Source: Patescibacteria group bacterium (GTDB lineage Bacteria; Patescibacteriota; Minisyncoccia; CAIUEV01; JAHKAQ01). Taken from it: a stretch of 64,000 nucleotides of DNA. The DNA lies in assembly GCA_034716235.1 (NCBI GenBank), contig JAYEHH010000037.1, forward strand, positions 566 to 64,565. The letters run 5' to 3'. The translations under genes were made by a program, and so were the position numbers. Positions 5,684 through 61,176 of this stretch are shown here, in pieces. Below the pieces are notes generated by a model. That model had not been told where the DNA came from and searched no databases. It saw only the letters and a list, made by a program, of their open reading frames with translations. Position 1 is the first letter of the stretch. Each line of letters opens with the position of its first letter.

Positions 5684-5859
5684 TCCAGTGTGATTATTTG
5701 GCTGAGTGGTTAATTGTGGTTTAGACAATTTATTGAGCTTATAAATTGAATTTTTTCCATAGAGACGTAAAATTTTGCGTCTTTACAATTTTTTGAAGGT
5801 GCAAAAAAGCTCATTTTTCAAACATTCGAACATTTAGATTGAAGGAATAAATAAAGGTT

Positions 5860-16094: not shown

Positions 16095-16910
16095 CTATTG
16101 TTTCTGTACTAAAATTATAACTTTTTCTCCTTCTAAAATCCTCTCTTTTTTGCCGGGGAAGTCATGAATACTCTCTAACAGATTTTTGTAAGAGTATTGA
16201 AACCCTTCACCTCTTTTGGTACCAGGGTCATTAGTGATAAAGCGTTGTTTTTTCTCGTCATAACCAGTAATTACTAGGGCGTGATATAGTGGTCCGGGTT
16301 GCTTGAAGTAAGGATTAGCCAAAACTCTGCCAGCTACTGGGACTATGATAATAGATCCCTGAGCAAGATATTTTTTTAAATCTTCTAAGAGATAATTTTG
16401 GACCAATTGATATTTGTCTCCATAAAATTCTTGGGCAAGAGTTATTATTTTTTGAGCATCTAAGTCTGTATGAGCTCCGTAATTTTTCTGCTGATAGGCA
16501 ACCATTTTTAAAATTTCAGCTTCTCCTTCCTGTTTAGATAATTTTTTCTCACCCAGTAAATAGTAATGCGCGATAATAATGGCAGCTTCTTCACAGGCCT
16601 CTCCATGGAGATGGTCCCAATTAGCAAAAGGAGCTTGAGGAATGAAAGGAACTGGATTGTTTATTTTTAAAGGGAGAGGATCTGTTGCCTCTGTTGTTTT
16701 TTTGTTTTTTTGGTTGCTTTCAATACTCGTATCTTTTTCTCCTGTAAGCTTGTCTAGCTGAGCAGTATTTTCTTTAATCTCTTTAAAGATTGGGAAATAG
16801 TCTTTAACTAAATTTGATTTCTGGAAAAAATAATAAAATAAACACCCTAAAACAAGAGTACAAACACTGGCGACTAGAACCCATTTAACACACGGTTTAA
16901 TTTTTCCCAT
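16095..16910 (-). CDS. Membrane-anchored C39-like (papain-fold) peptidase domain protein
   Basis: N-terminal TM helix, then QAPFANWDHLHGEACEEAAIIIAHYY (candidate catalytic Cys) and later HALVITGYDE...FITNDPG (His/Asp), as in Peptidase_C39_2-like domains. Confidence 0.45.
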   Translation of the reverse strand: MGKIKPCVKWVLVASVCTLVLGCLFYYFFQKSNLVKDYFPIFKEIKENTAQLDKLTGEKDTSIESNQKNKKTTEATDPLPLKINNPVPFIPQAPFANWDHLHGEACEEAAIIIAHYYLLGEKKLSKQEGEAEILKMVAYQQKNYGAHTDLDAQKIITLAQEFYGDKYQLVQNYLLEDLKKYLAQGSIIIVPVAGRVLANPYFKQPGPLYHALVITGYDEKKQRFITNDPGTKRGEGFQYSYKNLLESIHDFPGKKERILEGEKVIILVQKQ

Positions 16911-17444: not shown

Positions 17445-17514
17445 TGACAGGCAGGTGCCAAGGATAACAAAAGAATAGATTTCTTAATTGAAAATTATTA
17501 TAATGTTTTTAAAA

Positions 17515-17548
17515 CGTACCGGGATTCCCGCTTTCGCGGGAATGACAG
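17515..17548. repeat. Module A repeat core, inverted copy, right flank of GIY-YIG; contains the ATG of the downstream gene
   Basis: cgtaccgggattcccgctttcgcgggaatgacag is the reverse complement of the 17066-17093 core; its terminal gaATGACAG supplies the start codon at 17542. Confidence 0.8.
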
Positions 17549-19812
17549 CAAATTTAACAACCTTCTTAACCTTCATAACTCTCACCCTCTTTTTCTTTCT
17601 CTTCCCTTTCTCCGTCAGAGCAACGGCGATTGATATTACGGAAAATACAACTTGGAATGAAGATCAAGTAGTGGAGGATAGGGTTATTGTCATGGGAGGA
17701 GCAACTTTAACCATTGAACCGGGAGTCCAAATTAAATTTAAGCCAGGAGGTAATTTAAGAATCTATGGAGATTTAATAGTGGAAGGAGAAAAGAATCAAC
17801 CGGTAATTTTCTTTAGAGAAAAACCTAAGCCAGAGGAAGAAAGGTGGATGTATTATTTAACCTTTGGAGCCGATTCTAATTCTGTCATCAAACATGCAAT
17901 CATTAAAGAGGCTGGTGGTTATTCTGACTCAGGCTCTCGAATGCCGGGAATGAAAATTAGGGGTAATTTAGAAATTTACGACAGTTTAATCACTCAAAAT
18001 TATTGGGCATTAGAAGTGAGAGACGATGGGCATTTAAAAATGAGAAATTCTGATATTTATGATAATCATACAACTTGGGGCGTAGAAGTATTGGGTCATT
18101 CTGCCGCCGCCGATATTGTTGATAATTATTGGGGAGATAATTCAGGCCCCTTTCATTCTTCTTTTAATAAATTGGCTACAGGAGAAAGAATCAATGGAGG
18201 CAATCTTGAATTTACACCCTGGGAAACAAGAGGTAAGAAGCCAATCATTCTAATCCCTGGATTTGGAGAATCTTTAAATTTCGGAAAGTTTTTTCAGAAT
18301 CAAGTAGGGAGATGGTGGCTTTTCCCGCCTACCAAATCAACCTCAGCCTTAAAAACTTTGCTAGAGGATGCTGGCTATGAAGATGAAGTAGATTTATTTG
18401 TTGGTTTTTATGACTGGCGGAAATCAATTCATCAAAATGCGACGGATTATTTAAAGCCAATTATAAATTTGGCTAAAGAAAAATCTGGTTTTAAAGAGGT
18501 GGACATTGTTGCTTTTAGTTTCGGTGGGCTTGTTTCCAGAAGCTATGTCCAAGGGAATTCTTTTGGGTTTGATGTAAATAATTTAATAACTTTAGGGACT
18601 CCCCATCAAGGAATTTCAAAAATTTACACTTTTGCAGCAGGCGGTCAGTTGCCAGCTGGCTGGAACCCCTTACTTTACATTTATCTCTGGTATGAACAAA
18701 TAGAGGAAGGTCAATCTGCCTTGGGTTATATCCAAAATTATTTACCATCCGTTTATGAGATAATGCCCACCTATGATTTCTTAAAAATGTCAGGGAGCTT
18801 GATTAATCATCAAGAAATGTCTATCACCAATAATATTTTGCAAGAGTTAAATAATGGAATTGGAGATTTACAAAATAGGGTAGATGCATTCTTTGTCGGA
18901 GGGACCGATCAACTAACCTTAGACAATATTCCAGTAAGACCACATCTACCAAACGATGGAGCATTTTGGCTGGACGGAGCTCCTGACCCAGCAAGACCAG
19001 TACCCAACAGTACTGAAGGAGATGCGACGGTCCTTACCAAAAGTGCTATTTGGGGAGTAGAAGATATTAAAAGCACTTTAATCCAGAGCCAGCATGAAGA
19101 TTTACCGTTAGAAGCAAAAACAGAAATTGAGAATATTTTAGACATTGATTTAGGAGAAACAAACTTTGATTTTAATTATTCGGAGGATTATCTTATTTTT
19201 TGCTTAGCTTCTCCTTTGGAAGTGGAAATCGTGGATCAGGCAGGGCATAGGCTTTCTCGGGAAATAAATGAAATTGAAAATGCTTATTTTTATGAAGAAG
19301 ATCCGTTGGGAAAAAAAATAATTTTAATTTATAATCCGGATACTGAATATTCAATGGAGGTTTCCGGGTTGGCGAACAGTGATTATAGAATTTTAGCAAT
19401 GTCAGCTGATGCTAATAGTGAAATAGTTTCTGCTGAAATTTCTGCAGAGATTGCTCTAGGAGAAAATGTTGAATATTGGGCAAGAAGAGTGGTGACTGAT
19501 ACCGAGGGAAATGAGCAGGGGGATGCGAATGAGTTAAAAATTGAAATTTATGAGAAAATCGTAGCTGACTATAAAGTGCTTGTTGGTCGAGTAAAAGATT
19601 TTTATAAAACTGGATTTTTGAAAAGTTGGGAGGTCAGACAGGAACTTTTAGAAAGAATACTGGCTAGCTATAATTTTTCAAAGAGAGATCAATTAGAAGA
19701 AGAGGGATTAATGATTGAAGATATAAAAGCAAAGGTTATTGAACTAGAAGTAAATGAGCTACTTGATTCCTCGAGTTCCCAATTGTTACTAGATGCCCTA
19801 GATGAGTTCTAA
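17542..19812 (+). CDS. Secreted protein: N-terminal signal peptide, right-handed parallel beta-helix repeats, LCAT/PGAP1-like alpha/beta-hydrolase (phospholipase/lipase) domain
   Basis: Signal peptide MTANLTTFLTFITLTLFFFLFPFSVRA; beta-helix-like repeats (NSDIYDNHTTWGVEV...); hallmark FYDWRKS and AFSFGG (A-x-S-x-G-G nucleophile elbow). Start reassigned from the TTG at 17488 to the ATG at 17542. Confidence 0.6.
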   Translation: MTANLTTFLTFITLTLFFFLFPFSVRATAIDITENTTWNEDQVVEDRVIVMGGATLTIEPGVQIKFKPGGNLRIYGDLIVEGEKNQPVIFFREKPKPEEERWMYYLTFGADSNSVIKHAIIKEAGGYSDSGSRMPGMKIRGNLEIYDSLITQNYWALEVRDDGHLKMRNSDIYDNHTTWGVEVLGHSAAADIVDNYWGDNSGPFHSSFNKLATGERINGGNLEFTPWETRGKKPIILIPGFGESLNFGKFFQNQVGRWWLFPPTKSTSALKTLLEDAGYEDEVDLFVGFYDWRKSIHQNATDYLKPIINLAKEKSGFKEVDIVAFSFGGLVSRSYVQGNSFGFDVNNLITLGTPHQGISKIYTFAAGGQLPAGWNPLLYIYLWYEQIEEGQSALGYIQNYLPSVYEIMPTYDFLKMSGSLINHQEMSITNNILQELNNGIGDLQNRVDAFFVGGTDQLTLDNIPVRPHLPNDGAFWLDGAPDPARPVPNSTEGDATVLTKSAIWGVEDIKSTLIQSQHEDLPLEAKTEIENILDIDLGETNFDFNYSEDYLIFCLASPLEVEIVDQAGHRLSREINEIENAYFYEEDPLGKKIILIYNPDTEYSMEVSGLANSDYRILAMSADANSEIVSAEISAEIALGENVEYWARRVVTDTEGNEQGDANELKIEIYEKIVADYKVLVGRVKDFYKTGFLKSWEVRQELLERILASYNFSKRDQLEEEGLMIEDIKAKVIELEVNELLDSSSSQLLLDALDEF

Positions 19813-19945: not shown

Positions 19946-20161
19946 ATGCAAAAACCATATTACGAAAAACCAAATTTTAAATTATATAAAACAGATAGTT
20001 TAGAGTTTCTAGCACAATTACCAGAAAATTCTATTGATATGATTTTTGCCGATCCTCCCTATTTTCTTTCAAGTGGAAGTTTCACCTGCCACAATGGAAA
20101 AATGGTAAATGTAAAAAAGGGAGATTTTATAATTTTTCGACAAAAGAAACCATGCAATTAA
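19946..20161 (+). pseudogene. N-terminal 71-aa fragment of a DpnA/beta-class N6-adenine (GATC) DNA methyltransferase; truncated, displaced by the downstream gene
   Basis: MQKPYYEKPNFKLYKTDSLEFLAQLPENSIDMIFADPPYFLSSG...VNVKKGDF matches the N-terminus and DPPY motif IV of DpnA-like MTases. The reading frame ends after 71 aa and overlaps the start of the next ORF. Confidence 0.65.
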
Positions 20162-20919
20162 TTTTGAATACAGATTTAGCTACTCAATACAAAAGTCAAT
20201 CTCAGAAAGTTAGAGTTTTGACTGAAAATTGGGTAAAAAATGAGATTTTTTGTCCGAATTGTGGGAATATTATTTCTAAATATCCAAACAATAAGCCAGT
20301 TGGAGATTTCTATTGTTCTGATTGTTTAGAAGATTATGAATTAAAAAGTAAAAAAGATTCAATTGGTAATAAAATTGTTGATGGAGCTTATAAAACAATG
20401 ATTGAAAGATTACAAAGCTCTACAAATCCAAATTTTTTCTTTTTAAACTATAATTTGCATACTTACGAAGTTGTAAATTTTGTTGTTATTCCAAAACATT
20501 TTTTTATTCCAGAAATAATTGAAAAAAGGAGACCCTTATCAGAGAATGCTCGTCGTGCTGGCTGGGTTGGTTGTAGTATTTTATTACAAAGTATTCCTGA
20601 AAGTGGAAAGATTTTCTACATTAAAAATCAACGAAAACAAAAAAAAGAAAAAGTTTTAAAAAATTGGCAAAAGACTTTATTTTTAAGACAACCTCAAGAA
20701 ATAGAATTAAAAGGCTGGATTTTAGATATTATGAAGTGCATTGATAAATTAGGGAAAAAGAAATTTTCGCTCGAAGAAATGTATTCATTTGAGAAAATCT
20801 TATCAGAAAAATATCCTGAGAATAATCATATTAAGGATAAAATAAGACAACAACTCCAGTTTTTAAGAGATGAAGGTTATTTAGATTTTTTATCTCGTGG
20901 TATTTATCGTTTAAAATAA
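20152..20919 (+). CDS. DpnI-like methylation-dependent (G-m6A-TC) type IIM restriction endonuclease: PD-(D/E)XK catalytic domain plus C-terminal winged helix
   Basis: 255 aa. From my memory of the S. pneumoniae DpnI sequence, the blocks match closely: YKSQSQKVRVLTENWV, FCPNCGN, DFYCSDC, ELKSKK, DGAYKTM, NPNFFFLNY, RRAGWVGC, GLFLR, NNHIKDKIRQQLQFLRD. Length is also the same. Confidence 0.75.
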   Translation: MQLILNTDLATQYKSQSQKVRVLTENWVKNEIFCPNCGNIISKYPNNKPVGDFYCSDCLEDYELKSKKDSIGNKIVDGAYKTMIERLQSSTNPNFFFLNYNLHTYEVVNFVVIPKHFFIPEIIEKRRPLSENARRAGWVGCSILLQSIPESGKIFYIKNQRKQKKEKVLKNWQKTLFLRQPQEIELKGWILDIMKCIDKLGKKKFSLEEMYSFEKILSEKYPENNHIKDKIRQQLQFLRDEGYLDFLSRGIYRLK

Positions 20920-35819: not shown

Positions 35820-35903
35820 GCCGCGGTGGCGGAACTGGTAGACGCGCCAGCTTTAGGAGCTGGTGAGATTTATCTTGTGGGAGTTCAAATCTCCCCCGCG
35901 GCA
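35820..35903 (+). tRNA. tRNA-Leu (anticodon TAG), class II with long variable arm
   Basis: Acceptor GCCGCGG/CCGCGGC, D-arm GCGGAACTGGTAGACGC, anticodon stem CCAGC/GCTGG with loop TTTAGGA (TAG), variable arm TGAGATTTATCTTGT, T-arm GGGAG-TTCAAAT-CTCCC, discriminator A; CCA not encoded. Confidence 0.8.
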
Positions 35904-35907
35904 CCCT

Positions 35908-39006: not shown

Positions 39007-39087
39007 ATTTGTCTAAATTTGCTCGGGATTGTCATCCAAGGGGTGACCAGCCCGGCACATTTAAGAAATGTTTAATTTTGTTTGGTT

Positions 39088-39115
39088 GTAGAGACGCAAG
39101 ATTTTGCGTCTCTAC
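39088..39115 (+). promoter_or_regulatory. Perfect 10-bp palindromic hairpin GTAGAGACGC-N8-GCGTCTCTAC; a homologous element lies at 5762-5790
   Basis: gtagagacgcaagattttgcgtctctac versus atagagacgtaaaattttgcgtctttac upstream of rplC. A third related hairpin is at 39195-39222 (tagagacaggttttaaacctgtctcta). Confidence 0.4.
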
Positions 39116-39306
39116 GGAAAATAATCACAATCGTAATAAATTTGGACCACAATCTAAAAATTGTCTCACGTTAGGTAGACGCGGAGATAACAAATAGAGA
39201 CAGGTTTTAAACCTGTCTCTACAAATTTAAAATTTCTTTCATCTTCCTTTAATTTATTTTTTCAGGTCTTTTAATAATCTATTCTCTATACTGAATTAGA
39301 ATAATT

Positions 39307-40005
39307 TTGAAGAACGGAGGTGATAAAATGAGCAATAGAAAATTTTCAGCTAATTCTTTTGAAGCTTCCAATGGTAACCTTGCCTTTCTGGGAAGCCGAA
39401 AAAGAAAAATTGTCTTAGCCACTTTAATTTTATTGGTGCTTGCTTTTGCCTTAAGTGTTCGTTCTTATTTTTCTGCCGATAAAGGCATTCTTGGAAATAA
39501 TGTGGCTATGGCTACCTTGGATTTAGAAATAACTGAAGAAGATGGTTCAGCATTAACCCCTTTTGATTTTGGAGATATTTATCCAGGTTGGAATCATGAA
39601 ATGCGGGGGAAAATTAAAAATGTCGGTTCGGCGGATTTGATTTTTAGAACACAGGTACAGGGTGGTACTGCCGATTTTGAAAGTCTAGCCAGGACCATTC
39701 TTTATGATTTGCAAATAAAAAATGAGTTTGGAGTGATGGTTTATTCTCAAAATGGCTATTTGGATAATCTAGGATCAGATAATTGTCTTATGAACATTGC
39801 TATTAATCCGAACGATTCTTTTGTTTATTCTCTTAGCTTAAACATCCCGGTTGATATGGATGATCATACCACTCCCGAAAATGACGACGACAACCAGTAT
39901 CAGGGGAAGAATGCTCAATTTGATTTTGTGATTCAATCCACTCAAGCAAATAATACGAGCTGGACCGGACTTTTGACAGGTTTTAATTTCCCTCATCAAG
40001 CCTAA
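39307..40005 (+). CDS. TasA/CalY/camelysin-family (peptidase M73-like) secreted protein with SipW-cognate-type signal peptide
   Basis: TM/signal then SYFSADKGILGNNVAMATLDLEI (compare TasA AAFNDIKSKDATFASGTLDL), DIYPGW...KNVGSADL (compare NLKPGD...ENNGSLAI) and C-terminal QYQGKNAQFDFVIQSTQANNTSWTG (compare KYQGNSIKLQFSFEATQWNG). Confidence 0.6.
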   Translation: MKNGGDKMSNRKFSANSFEASNGNLAFLGSRKRKIVLATLILLVLAFALSVRSYFSADKGILGNNVAMATLDLEITEEDGSALTPFDFGDIYPGWNHEMRGKIKNVGSADLIFRTQVQGGTADFESLARTILYDLQIKNEFGVMVYSQNGYLDNLGSDNCLMNIAINPNDSFVYSLSLNIPVDMDDHTTPENDDDNQYQGKNAQFDFVIQSTQANNTSWTGLLTGFNFPHQA

Positions 40006-40104
40006 AAGTTATGAAGTCCAGAAATTTAAGTCATTAGGCTTAACAAGTTTGAAGTGGCAATAATTAGGTGGTAGTAACTAGGAATTAATTAATTAGTAAA
40101 TTTA

Positions 40105-41391
40105 ATGCTGAAAACTCTCGGGCTCATTTGCTTGTTATTTATAACGATTAGTTGTTGGGTTGAGCCGGAATATGCCGAAGCTAATTTTTCCAAAAGTTTC
40201 TTTGTTCAAAACAACAGACTGGGTTTAGGGGATTGGACAAGTCCTAGCCTAGAAATTATTCAAAGTCCTCAGGAAAATATGGCTTACGAGAGTTTAAGCA
40301 TTAGGGTTAAAGGGGTAGATACTATTTCTGCTATTAGTAATTTTGAATACTTACTTTATTCGCATACCCCAGCTGATCTTGCGTCGGATTGGGTTCAAAC
40401 ATTAAAAACAATTACTTGCGACGACCCAGAAGAAAATTCAGAAAGTGAAGGTCTGACTCAAGAAAAAGAAATACTATTGTCTTTAGATAAAATTGAAAAT
40501 TCAAATCATAAACTTTGCCTTGATGATGAAATATGGTGCGAAGATGGCCCGCTACCTGCTGGAGAATACTATTTAATTATTCACGCTTATGACTCCAGCC
40601 AGACCCTGGATGTTTTAGGAAACAAAAGTGAAGATTTAATCTACCAATTTATCAAAAAAGAAGCTCAAGTTATTTGCCAACTAGGAACTATTAAAGTTAA
40701 AGCAGGAGAAGAAATTAATTTTCCTAATGTTACTTGTGCTGACGAACCGGAACTTGAAGAAATTAAGTGGGATTTAGACGAAGCGGACGGAGTAGATTTT
40801 ACTAATCCCGATTTATTGGGTAACGCTCCTATATTAACGGAAGGAATTACCATCCCAGGCACCTATTCTGTTACCGTTGAAGCTAAAAATATAGAGGGAA
40901 TAGTTAAAAGACAATCTTTCAGAATGGATGTAAGCAATCCCGTACTTAATTATGGAGATTTAATCATTAATGAATTTATTCCAAACCCTGTCGGAGATGA
41001 CAAGGCTGTAATGCCAGCAGGGGAATGGGTAGAAATCTATAATAAATTGGCAGTAGGAATAGATTTATTGGGATTTGTAGTTTATGACAACTATGATGAA
41101 CATGATTTGCCTTTAACTAAAAATAATTGTCAGGATAATTCTACCTTAATTTTCCCGCACTCTTATAAAGTGATATACCGAAATGGTGATCCACAATTCT
41201 CACTCAATAATAGTGGTTTAGAAAAAATTCGTCTCTTTAATGGATTTATAGAAAACGAGGCTATTATTTTAACTGATTATGAATATTCAGGAGGAGTCAT
41301 AGAGGGAAAATCTTTGGCTCGGATGCCTAATCTTGACGGTGATTTTCAGCAAATGGTTCCTACTCCAGGAGAAGAAAACAAAAATCCCTGA
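40105..41391 (+). CDS. Secreted protein with C-terminal lamin-tail domain (LTD)
   Basis: Signal peptide MLKTLGLICLLFITISCWVEPEYAEA; LTD signature DLIINEFIPNPVGDDKAVMPAGEWVEIYN...LGFVVYDN. Confidence 0.6.
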   Translation: MLKTLGLICLLFITISCWVEPEYAEANFSKSFFVQNNRLGLGDWTSPSLEIIQSPQENMAYESLSIRVKGVDTISAISNFEYLLYSHTPADLASDWVQTLKTITCDDPEENSESEGLTQEKEILLSLDKIENSNHKLCLDDEIWCEDGPLPAGEYYLIIHAYDSSQTLDVLGNKSEDLIYQFIKKEAQVICQLGTIKVKAGEEINFPNVTCADEPELEEIKWDLDEADGVDFTNPDLLGNAPILTEGITIPGTYSVTVEAKNIEGIVKRQSFRMDVSNPVLNYGDLIINEFIPNPVGDDKAVMPAGEWVEIYNKLAVGIDLLGFVVYDNYDEHDLPLTKNNCQDNSTLIFPHSYKVIYRNGDPQFSLNNSGLEKIRLFNGFIENEAIILTDYEYSGGVIEGKSLARMPNLDGDFQQMVPTPGEENKNP

Positions 41392-41408
41392 CATTGCAGG
41401 GATTTTTG
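41381..41408 (+). terminator. Rho-independent terminator after the LTD gene
   Basis: aaatccctg-acattg-cagggattt followed by ttgtt; 9-bp stem overlapping the stop codon. Confidence 0.55.
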
Positions 41409-41534
41409 TTAACTAAGCTTATGTTTAAACCGAGTAATTTGTGGGTAAAGTACGACGAAGAATATACCTCGGAAATCTTTTATTTTTGTTCATTTTATTC
41501 TATCTATTCTGTAAATTAATTAATTTACAGACAT

Positions 41535-42233
41535 TTACAGGCTCGGAACTTGCTGGCTAAAAACTTTTAAGTGATCCAGTTGTCCCGGTGTTAATGTCTT
41601 CGACGCTTCTAAAGCTGACTCAATATCACTTTCAGAAAATGCTTTCGTTTCTCCTATGTTGAGTCGGGAGGAATATCCCATTTTTTTCGCTAAATAATCC
41701 TCCATGTAAATCTTGTGTTCCGCAGTGACTGAGGAATCATTATGAGTATCCAAATACTGACTGACCGCTGAACGGGCTAAAGTTGTTAAACTGTCGCCAC
41801 TAGCAGCCGTTACTTCATAAGAACCATTAGTTTGGGAAACTACCGCTTCCTGTTTAGGAGCTTCTTCTACTGCTTCTGCTGCTTCTGCTACTGCTTCTTT
41901 CACTTCATCTCCAGTAGCTATTTCATCTCCAGTTTTTTCTTCAATGCCAGCTACTTGTTCTGCATCAGCATCTCCCTCTTCTTCATCAGCAAGTTTAGCA
42001 GAATCTTCTTCAATTAATTTCTGTAAATCTGTTTTTTCAGTAGTTTCTTCTGCTAATTTTTCTCCAGCATCTTCAGCCCCTCGTTTAGAATAGGAGTAAA
42101 CTCCTAAAGCGATAACTAAGACAATAACAATTGATAGAACTATTCGAACATTGTCCTGTATCCAAGTTTTGATTTCCGAAGGCCAATTTCCTGAAGGTTC
42201 AGGAATATCACCTTCATTCTTCATCTTGCTCAC
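41535..42233 (-). CDS. Hypothetical membrane-anchored acidic protein (N-terminal TM, Glu/Ala-rich linker, ~90-aa C-terminal domain)
   Basis: ORF with TM helix IVLSIVIVLVIALGVY and a low-complexity AEAAEAVEEA region; no recognisable family. Confidence 0.4.
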   Translation of the reverse strand: MSKMKNEGDIPEPSGNWPSEIKTWIQDNVRIVLSIVIVLVIALGVYSYSKRGAEDAGEKLAEETTEKTDLQKLIEEDSAKLADEEEGDADAEQVAGIEEKTGDEIATGDEVKEAVAEAAEAVEEAPKQEAVVSQTNGSYEVTAASGDSLTTLARSAVSQYLDTHNDSSVTAEHKIYMEDYLAKKMGYSSRLNIGETKAFSESDIESALEASKTLTPGQLDHLKVFSQQVPSL

Positions 42234-58566: not shown

Positions 58567-58917
58567 ATGTTGAGGTATAGAAATTTTAAGGTCTATAAAG
58601 ACGCAAAAGATTTTCATAAATTAACGGTTAAACTAGCTTCTCAATTTTCTGGAGGCTTCAATTATTTAAGTAACCAGATCCGGAGAAGTTCACTATCGGT
58701 TGTACTGAATATTGCCGAGGGATCGGCAAAGGGTTCAGATAAAGATTTTAATTGTTATTTAAAAAACTCATTGGGCTCAATGAGTGAAACTTTAGCAGGA
58801 TTTGAAATTGCTTTAGAGTTTCAATTAATTTCTCTTTCAGATTTTGAAAATATTGAGGCTAAGGCTAAAAGTATTATTAAACAACTGGGAGGTTTTTCAA
58901 AAAAGTTAAAAGGTTAA
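58567..58917 (+). CDS. Four-helix-bundle 'rRNA intervening-sequence (IVS) protein' encoded inside the first 16S insertion
   Basis: 116 aa. KDAKDFHKLTVKLASQF...SNQIRRSSLSVVLNIAEGSAKGSDKDFNCYLKNSLGSMSETLAGFEIA matches the family normally found in 23S IVS elements (RRS/A-x-SI/V-x-NIAEG; ...GS..E...L). Confidence 0.7.
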   Translation: MLRYRNFKVYKDAKDFHKLTVKLASQFSGGFNYLSNQIRRSSLSVVLNIAEGSAKGSDKDFNCYLKNSLGSMSETLAGFEIALEFQLISLSDFENIEAKAKSIIKQLGGFSKKLKG

Positions 58918-59068
58918 TAGTTAGAAGTTGGTAGTTGCGTAGCGGCAAACGGGTTAGTAACACGTGAGAATCTACCCTAAAGTTTGGAATAACTCGGAGA
59001 AATCCGAGATAATACCAAATATGTTCTTCGGAGTAAAGCCTTCGGGCGCTTTAGGAGGAGCTCGCGTA

Positions 59069-59105
<37 letters not shown>

Positions 59106-59165
59106 TATGACGGTTAGGGAGCGTGAGAGCGTGATTCCCAACATTGGCACTGAAACACTGGCCAA

Positions 59166-59196
<31 letters not shown>

Positions 59197-59763
59197 CCAC
59201 AATGGGGGAAACCCTGATGGAGCGACGTTGCGTGCGGGATGACGGCCTTCGGGTTGTAAACCGCTTTTGTAGGAGATGAATACGCTCAACTTTTTTGATT
59301 TTATTTTTGATTATGTTTTTTATAATTAATAGAATTAAAAAACTTGGGCGTATGACAGTATCCTTTCGAATAAGAGGTTGCTAACTCTGTGCCAGCAGCA
59401 GCGGTGATACAGAGACCTCGAGCGTTGTCCGGATTTATTGGGCGTAAAGGGTTCGTAGGGGGTTTGAAGGGTTTCAAGTAAAATCTTAAGGCTCAACCTT
59501 GAGTTGGCTTGAAAAACTAGCAAACTAGAGCATACCAGAGGTGTTTAGAACTCATGGTGTAGGAGTGAAATCCGTTGAGATCATGGGGAATACCAAAGGC
59601 GAAGGCATAACACTAGGGTATTGCTGACCCTGAGGGACGAAAGCGTGGGGAGCGAAATGGATTAGATACCCATGTAGTCCACGCTGTAAACGATGAGCGC
59701 TAGATATTTGAGGCTTCGACCCCTTGAGTGTCACAGCTAACGCATTAAGCGCTCCGCCTGGGA

Positions 59764-59795
<32 letters not shown>

Positions 59796-59914
59796 AGACG
59801 GGGATCCGCACAAGCGGTGGAGCGTCCGGTTTAATTCGATAATAAGCGTGGAACCTTACCAGGACTTGACATCCCACGATAGCTTTAGAAATAAAGTTTC
59901 CTTCGGGCGTGGTG

Positions 59915-59945
<31 letters not shown>

Positions 59946-60257
59946 CTGTGAAGTGTTCCGTTAAGTCGGGAAACGAGCGCAACCCTTGTCATGTGTTAAA
60001 TTTCTCACATGATACTGCTCGGGTTAACCGAGAGGAAGGCAGGGATGACGTCAAATCAGCATGGCCCTTATGTCCTGGGCTACACGGGCGCTACAATGGC
60101 AAATACAAAGGGTAGCCAAGTCGTAAGACGGAGCTAATCCTCCAAAGTTTGTCTTAGTTCGGATTGAAGGCTGCAACTCGCCTTCATGAAGCTGGAATCG
60201 CTAGTAATCGTGAATCAGCCACGTCACGGTGAATATGTTCCCGGATCTTGTACTCAC

Positions 60258-61176
60258 AATAAAAGCGCCAGGCAGTTTAATAATCCAGAGAGTTAAAATC
60301 TCTCCCTCTGTTCGTCGCAGAGCGTAATAGAAAGATAGGCCTTAAACCGCGAGGTTGAGGCTGAAGGATCTTAAAATAAACTGCAGTCAGATATTTTCAC
60401 AGGCAGTATTGACCCTTGATTGGGCGGTGAGCATGGGGAAAATACGCTAAAAATGCCTATCTGAATGCAGGGAACGGAGTATTAAATAACCCTGGGAGAT
60501 CTTATATTGTCCCACCCAAATTTTTAGTGACTAATAAAAATTGTTATATATTTATTATATGATGAGTAGTCACCATAAATTTGGGCGGGTAATGAAACTT
60601 AAGCAATGTAAGAAGTCAGCTGAGTCATAGTAACTTTCAATGCTATATTGAAACGAAGGACTCATTTTAATGTTATGAAGAAAATAAATTTCGACTATAT
60701 CGTTGGATTGGTAGATGGAGAAGGAAGTTTTACGGTTTATGTAAAAAATCCCTATCTATTGAAAAAAGTAAAGCGTCGATCCAAGGTAGAACCAAGATTT
60801 TATCTTAAGCTTATAGACAAAGATAAAGAGAGTCTCTATAAGCTAAAAGAATTTTTTGGGTGCGGAAATGTTTATTTTCAAAGAGATAGAAGAGCCAACC
60901 ATAGAAATTGTTATCGGTATGAAGTAGTAGCAAGGCAAAATTTGCAGAAGATTATAATACCTTTTTTCAAGAAACATGAATTGAGATTGAGATCAAAGGC
61001 TTATGATTTTAAAATTTTCTGTAAAATAATGGAAAAAATAATAAGGAAAGAACATTTAACTCAAAATGGTTTGGAAAGAATATTCTTCTTGAAGATGAAA
61101 ATGCATTAGAACTCGTCGTATGCGGGAAATCCGCAGGTACGATGGGAACGTCAATGCCAAGTTTCTGGCAGATAAT
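60258..61176 (+). mobile_element. Intron-like insertion (~919 nt) in the 16S 3' domain at about E. coli position 1399/1400, carrying a homing-endonuclease ORF
   Basis: The conserved TGTAC(A/T)CAC and CGCCCGTCACACC halves of the 1390-1410 region are split by 0.9 kb; boundaries are approximate (+/- a few nt). Confidence 0.65.
60648..61109 (+). CDS. Single-motif LAGLIDADG homing endonuclease
   Basis: 153 aa; FDYIVGLVDGEGSFTV (LAGLIDADG motif), ...FFGCGNVYFQRD... typical family architecture. Confidence 0.85.
   Translation: MKRRTHFNVMKKINFDYIVGLVDGEGSFTVYVKNPYLLKKVKRRSKVEPRFYLKLIDKDKESLYKLKEFFGCGNVYFQRDRRANHRNCYRYEVVARQNLQKIIIPFFKKHELRLRSKAYDFKIFCKIMEKIIRKEHLTQNGLERIFFLKMKMH

Follow-up and report, generated by a model that had tools for sequence, protein, structure and literature searches.

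Organization of the ORF1–ORF2 locus

We analyzed a 64,000-nucleotide stretch of contig JAYEHH010000037.1 (assembly GCA_034716235.1) from a Patescibacteria group bacterium, hereafter the window, and describe two adjacent genes in it, ORF1 and ORF2 (open reading frames 1 and 2), which lie in the same orientation on the + strand. ORF1 (39328–40005, including the stop codon) encodes a 225-residue protein that we assign to the TasA/camelysin superfamily as a divergent subunit, and ORF2 (40105–41391) encodes a secreted three-domain protein of 428 residues (MEA3273631.1) that carries a lamin-tail domain (LTD). Both frames of the co-oriented secreted-protein genes put forward in the original prediction were found, and the terminator it placed behind them corresponds to a strong, bidirectional-looking hairpin of 14 bp at 41377–41410 (ΔG −19.5 kcal/mol, z −7.3), with an A-run ahead of it and a T-run behind; the next gene is convergent. 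An Rfam search of the locus returned sub-threshold matches only, over this terminator.

The longest ORF1 frame (39307–40005) begins with TTG, and GenBank annotates the protein from this TTG at 39307 as a 'hypothetical protein' (MEA3273630.1). We consider the ATG at 39328 to be the likely true start, because a Shine-Dalgarno sequence, GGAGGTG, can be read at 39316–39322, 5 nt ahead of it, and the orthologues (225 residues, MSNRKFS...) begin at the equivalent position. From there, ORF1 is predicted to open with a long signal sequence (39328–39465) comprising a 27-residue charged n-region, a 17-residue h-region and the c-region VRS, followed by a predicted donor-strand segment, YFSADKGILGNNVAMATLDLEI (39466–39531). 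Placed by register with family members and with the cleavage sites of TasA and TapA (PMC10151520), cleavage is predicted at S46|Y47 (VRS|YF); the corresponding signature, VRS|YFSADKGILGNNVAMATLDLEI, is present in the sequence. Towards the C-terminus lies a conserved block, NxYQG...F.F..(S/A)TQ..N..W.G (39892–39969), preceded by an acidic insertion, DMDDHTTPENDDDN, which the alignment places at residues 176–189 (39853–39894) and which is conserved only within the ORF1 clade. Because Ca2+-dependent assembly is reported for AbpX and CanA, we speculate that this insertion is a candidate Ca2+-binding site.

ORF1 as a divergent member of the TasA superfamily

Close relatives of ORF1 are rare, forming only four clusters in 5.8 billion sequences. 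When the profile of this clade was compared with 1.8 billion representative proteins, it recovered 20 proteins, mostly of 175–195 residues, with E-values from 5e-8 to 1e-3. Nearly all of them carry the Pfam family PF12389 (Peptidase_M73; 19/20) and the NCBIfam signature TIGR04088, for signal peptides of the SipW-dependent type (18/20), and 14/20 match the TasA model. Aligned with hhalign, the ORF1 clade and the 20 recovered proteins match with 99.55% probability (E 2.4e-23) over 169 columns, which cover the whole mature domain. The recovered proteins alone match the TasA structures 5OF1 and 8AUR (7e-11) and the archaeal AbpX (6e-6). We call the link between ORF1 and TasA transitive, because the clade matches M73 proteins and the M73 proteins match TasA structures; on this sequence evidence, ORF1 is a member of the TasA superfamily, connected to TasA itself through these intermediates only.

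The N-terminal region supports the same assignment. We took the N-termini of 20 bona fide members of the family, 18/20 of them TIGR04088-positive, to build a hidden Markov model (HMM), and the ORF1 N-terminus scored 27.5 bits against it (E 2e-8), compared with 5.2 bits for the best unrelated decoy ORF of the window. In a column-permutation test against the family, the ORF1 motif, serving as the positive control, reached a z of 8.8. These results and the hhalign match support the earlier description of ORF1 as TasA/camelysin-like with a putative SipW-type N-terminus. Across 25 aligned proteins (ORF1 clade and family), F48 and N57 are invariant and T63 is nearly so; P86-G87, N98, G100 and Q206 are further conserved. 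The interface pocket at the protomer contact of TasA is formed by F29, Q232 and F200 (Roske et al., PMC10151520). F48 of ORF1 corresponds to TasA F29, and Q206, conserved in at least 90% of the sequences, corresponds to Q232; the third pocket residue, F200, aligns with the hydrophobic I173. A TasA-like C-terminal block, which had also been predicted, was found as NQYQGKNAQFDFVIQSTQANNTSWTG and aligns with TasA QNKYQGNSIKLQFSFEATQWNG.

Several direct comparisons weigh against the assignment. PF12389 itself matches ORF1 with 14.3 bits (E 0.037), below its gathering threshold of 22.5, and only over the C-terminal 26 residues. The NCBIfam library contains no match to ORF1, and PDB searches with ORF1 alone and with the clade profile gave none. 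When TasA is the only target, the clade profile aligns over just 19 C-terminal columns (the NxYQG...TQ block), with 3.9% probability; of the profile comparison with TasA suggested at the outset, the transitive form through the M73 proteins holds (7e-11 to 5OF1), while the direct form is confined to these 19 columns. An AlphaFold2 model of ORF1 computed from a 4-sequence alignment is beta-rich but unusable, with a mean predicted local distance difference test score (pLDDT) of 38.6, and so provides no confident structure.

Two other readings of ORF1 were weighed. Given that the Pfam family is named for camelysin of B. cereus and that ORF1 matches it weakly, ORF1 could be a secreted camelysin-type metalloprotease with ORF2 as its substrate-binding partner. 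We regard this as very improbable and rejected the camelysin-type reading: ORF1 contains no HExxH or other zinc-binding motif, its conserved H90-E91-M92 has no second histidine behind it, and members of the superfamily with known structures, such as TasA and AbpX, build fibres and are not enzymes (PMC9674648). The other reading is that ORF1 stays uncleaved, tethered by an N-terminal transmembrane segment after its 27-residue charged cytoplasmic tail, and forms a monomeric surface coat. Its n-region is unusually long, the 64-kb window encodes no signal peptidase (SPase), and the motif has drifted below the detection of the curated TIGR04088 model, which does not match ORF1 even when the N-terminus is isolated. 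Against this stand the small-residue −3/−1 site V-R-S, kept at the family cleavage register; the long signal sequences normal in the superfamily (43 residues in TapA and 54 in AbpX; PMC10151520; bioRxiv 10.64898/2026.01.04.697558); and the donor-strand and acceptor-pocket residues, which are still invariant. We judge an uncleaved ORF1 to be improbable.

Domain architecture of ORF2

ORF2 begins with a signal peptide (40105–40182), with predicted cleavage at AEA26|N27. This is followed by a putative TasA-type N-terminal motif, NFSKSFFVQNNRLGLGDWTSP (40183–40245), an N-terminal beta-sandwich domain without family assignment (40246–40659), a middle immunoglobulin (Ig)-like domain that is weakly and sub-threshold PKD-like (40672–40944), and the LTD (40948–41364). 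GenBank, which holds both proteins on a 65,172-bp contig of a metagenome-assembled genome, labels this one a 'lamin tail domain-containing protein'. The canonical LTD of the original prediction was recovered by Pfam (PF00932, residues 282–391; score 37.5 bits, cut-off 34.3 bits; E 3.5e-9) and is confidently modelled in the predicted structure. Seven full-length orthologues share 43–74% identity, and Cys138 and Cys145 are conserved in the N-terminal domain.

The AlphaFold2 model of ORF2 has a mean pLDDT of 84.8 and comprises a signal helix, a disordered stretch and three beta domains. Residues 24–41 have a pLDDT <50 and are disordered in the model; the domains span residues ~45–185 (no family), ~190–280 (weakly PKD-like) and 282–420 (LTD, pLDDT >90). 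The disorder resembles that of TapA, whose functional N-terminus is likewise disordered (PMC10151520). A Foldseek search of the model against the PDB returned only generic strings of tandem Ig-like or macroglobulin-type domains, with template modelling (TM) scores <0.3.

A putative N-terminal motif shared by ORF1 and ORF2

The seven ORF2 orthologues share the consensus AEA|YFS....V.NN.I.LGDWT.P, in which F28, G42, D43, W44, T45 and P47 are invariant, and this consensus lines up without any offset with the M73 motif A|YF[ST]D.....N.F.AGTL. The alignment of ORF2-family and M73 N-termini by hhalign reached 95% probability over 42 columns in the same exact register, and column permutation restricted to the mature ORF2 segment gave a z of 4.4 (p 0.0008). 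Positions +2 (F), +11 (N) and +16 (G) carry the same residues in ORF1, ORF2, the M73 proteins and the LTD proteins of SipW-containing operons. Our N-terminal HMM placed 5/7 ORF2 orthologues above all decoys, with 7–12 bits.

Other tests argue in the opposite direction. With the same HMM, the window ORF2 and its closest orthologue did not rise above the decoys, and a 26-column HMM restricted to the motif separated no ORF2-family member from decoys. TIGR04088 gave no match on the isolated N-termini of the seven orthologues. The first domain of ORF2 shows no specific similarity to TapA in Foldseek or in the PDB sequence search, and the N-terminal similarity could reflect recognition by a peptidase and not a donor strand. 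Taken together, the sequence comparisons lend moderate support to the presence of a TasA-type N-terminal motif in ORF2.

Transcription unit and conserved pairing

The two genes form an obligate conserved unit. In every orthologous contig that is long enough, a gene for an ORF1-like protein of 205–229 residues is directly followed by one for an ORF2-like protein of 424–430 residues (L001–L006, L007, L011–L014, L017, L018 and L019, a 2,692-bp contig that also carries the ORF2 orthologue P0032). The upstream neighbours are of three types across these loci, a UvrD/PDDEXK helicase, HSP20 and the exodeoxyribonuclease VII small subunit, and in the most distant relatives the paired genes abut, with a gap of ~1 nt. 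ORF2 is thus an obligate partner of ORF1 and not a mere neighbour. The clade itself is narrow, being present in only three GTDB species representatives.

In the window, two strong hairpins (39086–39224, + strand) separate ORF1 from the upstream UvrD/PDDEXK helicase gene, one at 39088–39115 and the other at 39196–39224 (ΔG −21 and −17 kcal/mol); they probably insulate ORF1–ORF2 as a transcription unit of its own. The perfect hairpin GTAGAGACGCAAGATTTTGCGTCTCTAC at 39088–39115 recurs intergenically at 5759–5786 with 2 mismatches, where 0 such recurrences are expected by chance, and the hairpin at 39196–39224, a third, has the same stem core 80 nt downstream of the first. This element may be a lineage-specific terminator or a repeat.

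Downstream, a convergent gene (41535–42233, − strand) encodes a protein of 232 residues, in which a long, acidic linker of low complexity connects an N-terminal transmembrane helix to a C-terminal domain without any family match. A gene of similar size follows the pair in the orthologous loci that reach that far (e.g. L001, L007, L011, L017 and L018). We left it out as a third component, since it belongs to no family and its downstream conservation is shared by prmC and prfA beyond it.

Absence of SipW from the window and comparison with other M73 loci

The original prediction had remarked that no sipW accompanies the pair, and we found this to be correct for the whole window. The catalytic boxes SxSMxP and KGDxN are absent from all ORFs of the window and of the orthologous loci, and an HMM built from four SipW-type peptidases, searched against six-frame ORFs of at least 40 residues, found nothing better than E 1.3 in the 64 kb or in L001–L019. 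Outside its four training loci, the same HMM detected peptidases in L020–L022 (E 1e-31 to 3e-38) and L028–L029 (E 1.5e-44 to 1.6e-53). Among distinct sampled M73 loci outside the clade, a SipW-type peptidase (TIGR02228) is present in 8/9, with 120–127 bits against a cut-off of 51.85; the ninth (L015/L016) is cut off by the contig end.

These loci follow two arrangements. In L020/L021 and L022, the peptidase gene is followed by an M73 gene and then by one for an accessory protein of 357–402 residues with a SipW-type N-terminus. In L023, L025, L026 (Ca. Gracilibacteria), L027, L028 and L029, the peptidase gene lies directly upstream of, and overlaps, an LTD gene. At least one M73 gene precedes the peptidase in these six loci, except in L029, whose contig begins at the peptidase gene, and an M73-like gene trails the LTD gene in 5/6 of them; the L026 contig stops at the LTD gene. 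TIGR04088 scores 26.4 bits on the LTD protein of L023 and 25.1 bits on P0037, and our N-terminal HMM gives the LTD proteins P0039 and P0048 25.6 and 26.1 bits. The N-terminus of P0047 looks similar on visual inspection, yet its HMM score is only 1.1 bits. TasA-like and LTD proteins are thus coupled repeatedly and independently, as six other loci pair M73 genes with an LTD gene bearing a TIGR04088-type or M73-like N-terminal region. The window clade is a stripped-down version that has neither the peptidase nor the trailing gene.

P0041 (L029, 663–2504) is a fusion protein of 613 residues in which an entire M73 domain, scoring 69 bits, is combined with an LTD; it joins two domains that are encoded by separate genes in the window. 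The trailing genes encode proteins of 242–330 residues (L023, 3848–4837; L025, 10069–10980; L027, 3445–4374; L028, 2308–3036; L029, 2570–3478). Those of L028 and L029 score 33–52 bits on the M73 HMM, and those of L023, L025 and L027 have a core motif, PGW...N.G, straight after an ordinary signal peptide and lack the AYF..N..G donor-strand motif. The trailing M73-like protein may be a non-donating cap or anchor of the fibre.

Proposed mechanism of assembly

A TasA fibre grows as each subunit places its N-terminal strand in the neighbouring subunit (PMC9674648). Nucleation is the task of TapA, which donates its disordered N-terminus; residues 44–57 are enough for this in vivo. TasA and TapA are both cut by SipW (PMC10151520). 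The conserved genes of the Pyrobaculum system are just two, one for the pilin AbpA and, downstream of it, one for AbpB, a three-domain protein of 410 residues proposed as filament initiator and adhesin; no dedicated peptidase is linked to them (PMC9245690). Our starting points are the ORF1 homology, the LTD, the in-register N-terminal motif, the pairing of the two genes across orthologous loci and the lack of a sipW gene anywhere in the 64 kb. From these we propose that ORF1 and ORF2 constitute a minimal TasA-superfamily surface-fibre module of a narrow Patescibacteria clade: a donor-strand fibre subunit and an LTD-bearing initiator or adhesin in the TapA/AbpB role, both processed by an unlinked peptidase. 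We favour this reading by a modest degree.

Both proteins would be exported by the Sec pathway and cut just ahead of the conserved x-F (VRS|YF in ORF1, AEA|NF in ORF2). Mature ORF1 would be a jelly-roll subunit whose free N-terminal strand enters the next subunit by donor-strand complementation and so polymerizes, as in TasA, AbpA and AbpX. ORF2 would carry a donor-type strand on its disordered leader but no acceptor jelly-roll, which would place it at one fibre end only, the groove end. There it could give its strand to the first ORF1 subunit and display three Ig-like domains, the LTD last, as an adhesin, anchor or tip, possibly in attachment to a host. Because the operon of this clade contains no SipW, a peptidase from another locus would have to process both proteins, be it an unlinked enzyme of the SipW type or a general one of the LepB type; the −3/−1 residues (V-R-S in ORF1, A-E-A in ORF2) would be compatible with a general SPase I. 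Weighing against the proposal as a whole, we know of no experimental evidence for fibres in any Patescibacteria.

The shared motif could instead be only a recognition signal for a SipW-type peptidase located elsewhere, with ORF2 as an independent, co-expressed LTD exoprotein that binds, for example, matrix, extracellular DNA or a surface, outside the ORF1 fibre. TIGR04088 is indeed defined as a signal-peptide class, LTD proteins with such a signal adjoin SipW in the six other loci, and the N-terminal domain of ORF2 is not detectably TapA-like. However, the conserved residues at +2 (F), +11 (N), +16 (G) and +18 (W) follow the predicted cleavage and would remain on the mature protein, and the same segment is the functional donor strand in TasA and TapA (PMC10151520). 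The strict adjacency of the two genes and the M73–LTD fusion further argue for physical coupling. We consider a pure recognition signal unlikely.

Comparison with known TasA-type systems

The donor-strand module proposed here resembles the tapA-sipW-tasA operon of B. subtilis in three respects: the major subunit belongs to the same superfamily, the accessory protein has a disordered N-terminus that mimics the donor strand of the subunit ahead of an Ig-like domain, and both proteins have F at +2 past the cleavage site. In contrast, the window has no sipW in the operon or within 64 kb, and its gene order is subunit, then accessory. ORF2 resembles TapA neither in sequence nor specifically in fold, and its last two domains are PKD-like and LTD. 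ORF1 has ~35 residues fewer than TasA, has diverged beyond direct profile detection and contains the acidic insertion.

A parallel in gene content is abpA-abpB of Pyrobaculum calidifontis, which encodes archaeal bundling pili (PMC9245690). There, too, a pilin of ~200 residues is directly followed by a signal-peptide protein of ~410 residues with three beta-rich domains, for which a combined initiator and adhesin role has been proposed, and only these two genes are conserved across lineages, without a linked dedicated peptidase. However, the general signal peptidase of archaea is already of the SipW/Sec11 type, the first domain of AbpB is TapA-like and AbpB lacks an LTD. Its fibres were shown by cryo-EM, whereas fibres of ORF1 would follow by analogy.

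The M73–SipW–LTD–M73-like operons of L023 and L025–L029 share with the window a TasA-like gene coupled to an LTD protein whose N-terminal region is SipW-type or M73-like, as well as the same domain logic and gene orientation. Unlike them, the window clade lacks both the TIGR02228 peptidase and the trailing M73-like gene, and the N-terminal domains of their LTD proteins are not homologous to that of ORF2. The sipW-calY1-calY2 locus of Bacillus cereus likewise encodes M73-family subunits, one paralogue of which is thought to be an initiator; that locus, however, includes sipW, has a paralogous subunit as the accessory and encodes no LTD protein.

Homologues of PF12389 in Patescibacteria have already been noted in a census (PMC9245690), so TasA-like genes in this group are not new per se, and other TasA-superfamily loci have been described that encode accessory tip or anchor proteins (bioRxiv 10.64898/2026.01.04.697558). 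New here are a sub-threshold TasA-like clade, an LTD accessory with a putative donor-type N-terminus and the loss of SipW from the operon. Within the literature library searched, we found no paper on LTD accessories of TasA-like operons, nor any that ties LTD proteins or SipW to Patescibacteria or the Candidate Phyla Radiation (CPR). Across the loci compared here, LTD proteins recur as a class of accessories of TasA-like operons.

Physical contact with other cells is considered essential for Patescibacteria, and few of their surface appendages besides type IV pili have been characterized. The pair is compact and strictly conserved and may encode a TasA-type fibre that comes with its own adhesin or initiator. 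As the clade has dropped the dedicated peptidase that sibling operons keep, it also provides a natural test of the need for SipW in TasA-type assembly. A more far-reaching reading, tentative and in our view rather unlikely, is that a lineage of Patescibacteria assembles a donor-strand fibre without a chaperone and independently of SipW, with an LTD initiator as its host-attaching tip adhesin or anchor; 'TasA-like + LTD' operons would in that case represent a widespread surface-appendage system that has so far gone unrecognized.

Other features of the window

A complete 16S ribosomal RNA (rRNA) gene lies at 58832–60309 (+ strand; Rfam, 1183 bits), with no 23S gene in the remaining 3.7 kb; a local rise in G+C to 0.42 is due to the rRNA. 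A small ORF (58567–58917) overlaps its 5' end, and a LAGLIDADG-like ORF (60648–61109, IVGLVDGEGSF) lies just downstream. The window further encodes a DpnI-family (Dam-replacing) restriction endonuclease (20152–20919, + strand) that matches Pfam DpnI (E 1e-82) and also DpnI_C, a membrane-anchored Peptidase_C39_2-like protein (16095–16910, − strand), and a 774-residue secreted alpha/beta-hydrolase (17488–19812, + strand) that is LCAT/lipase-like and has a possible beta-helix region. In the longest frame of the helicase gene, the GTG start overlaps tRNA-Leu (35820–35905 and 35863), and the true start is probably a downstream ATG, giving MSIFKTHYKK.

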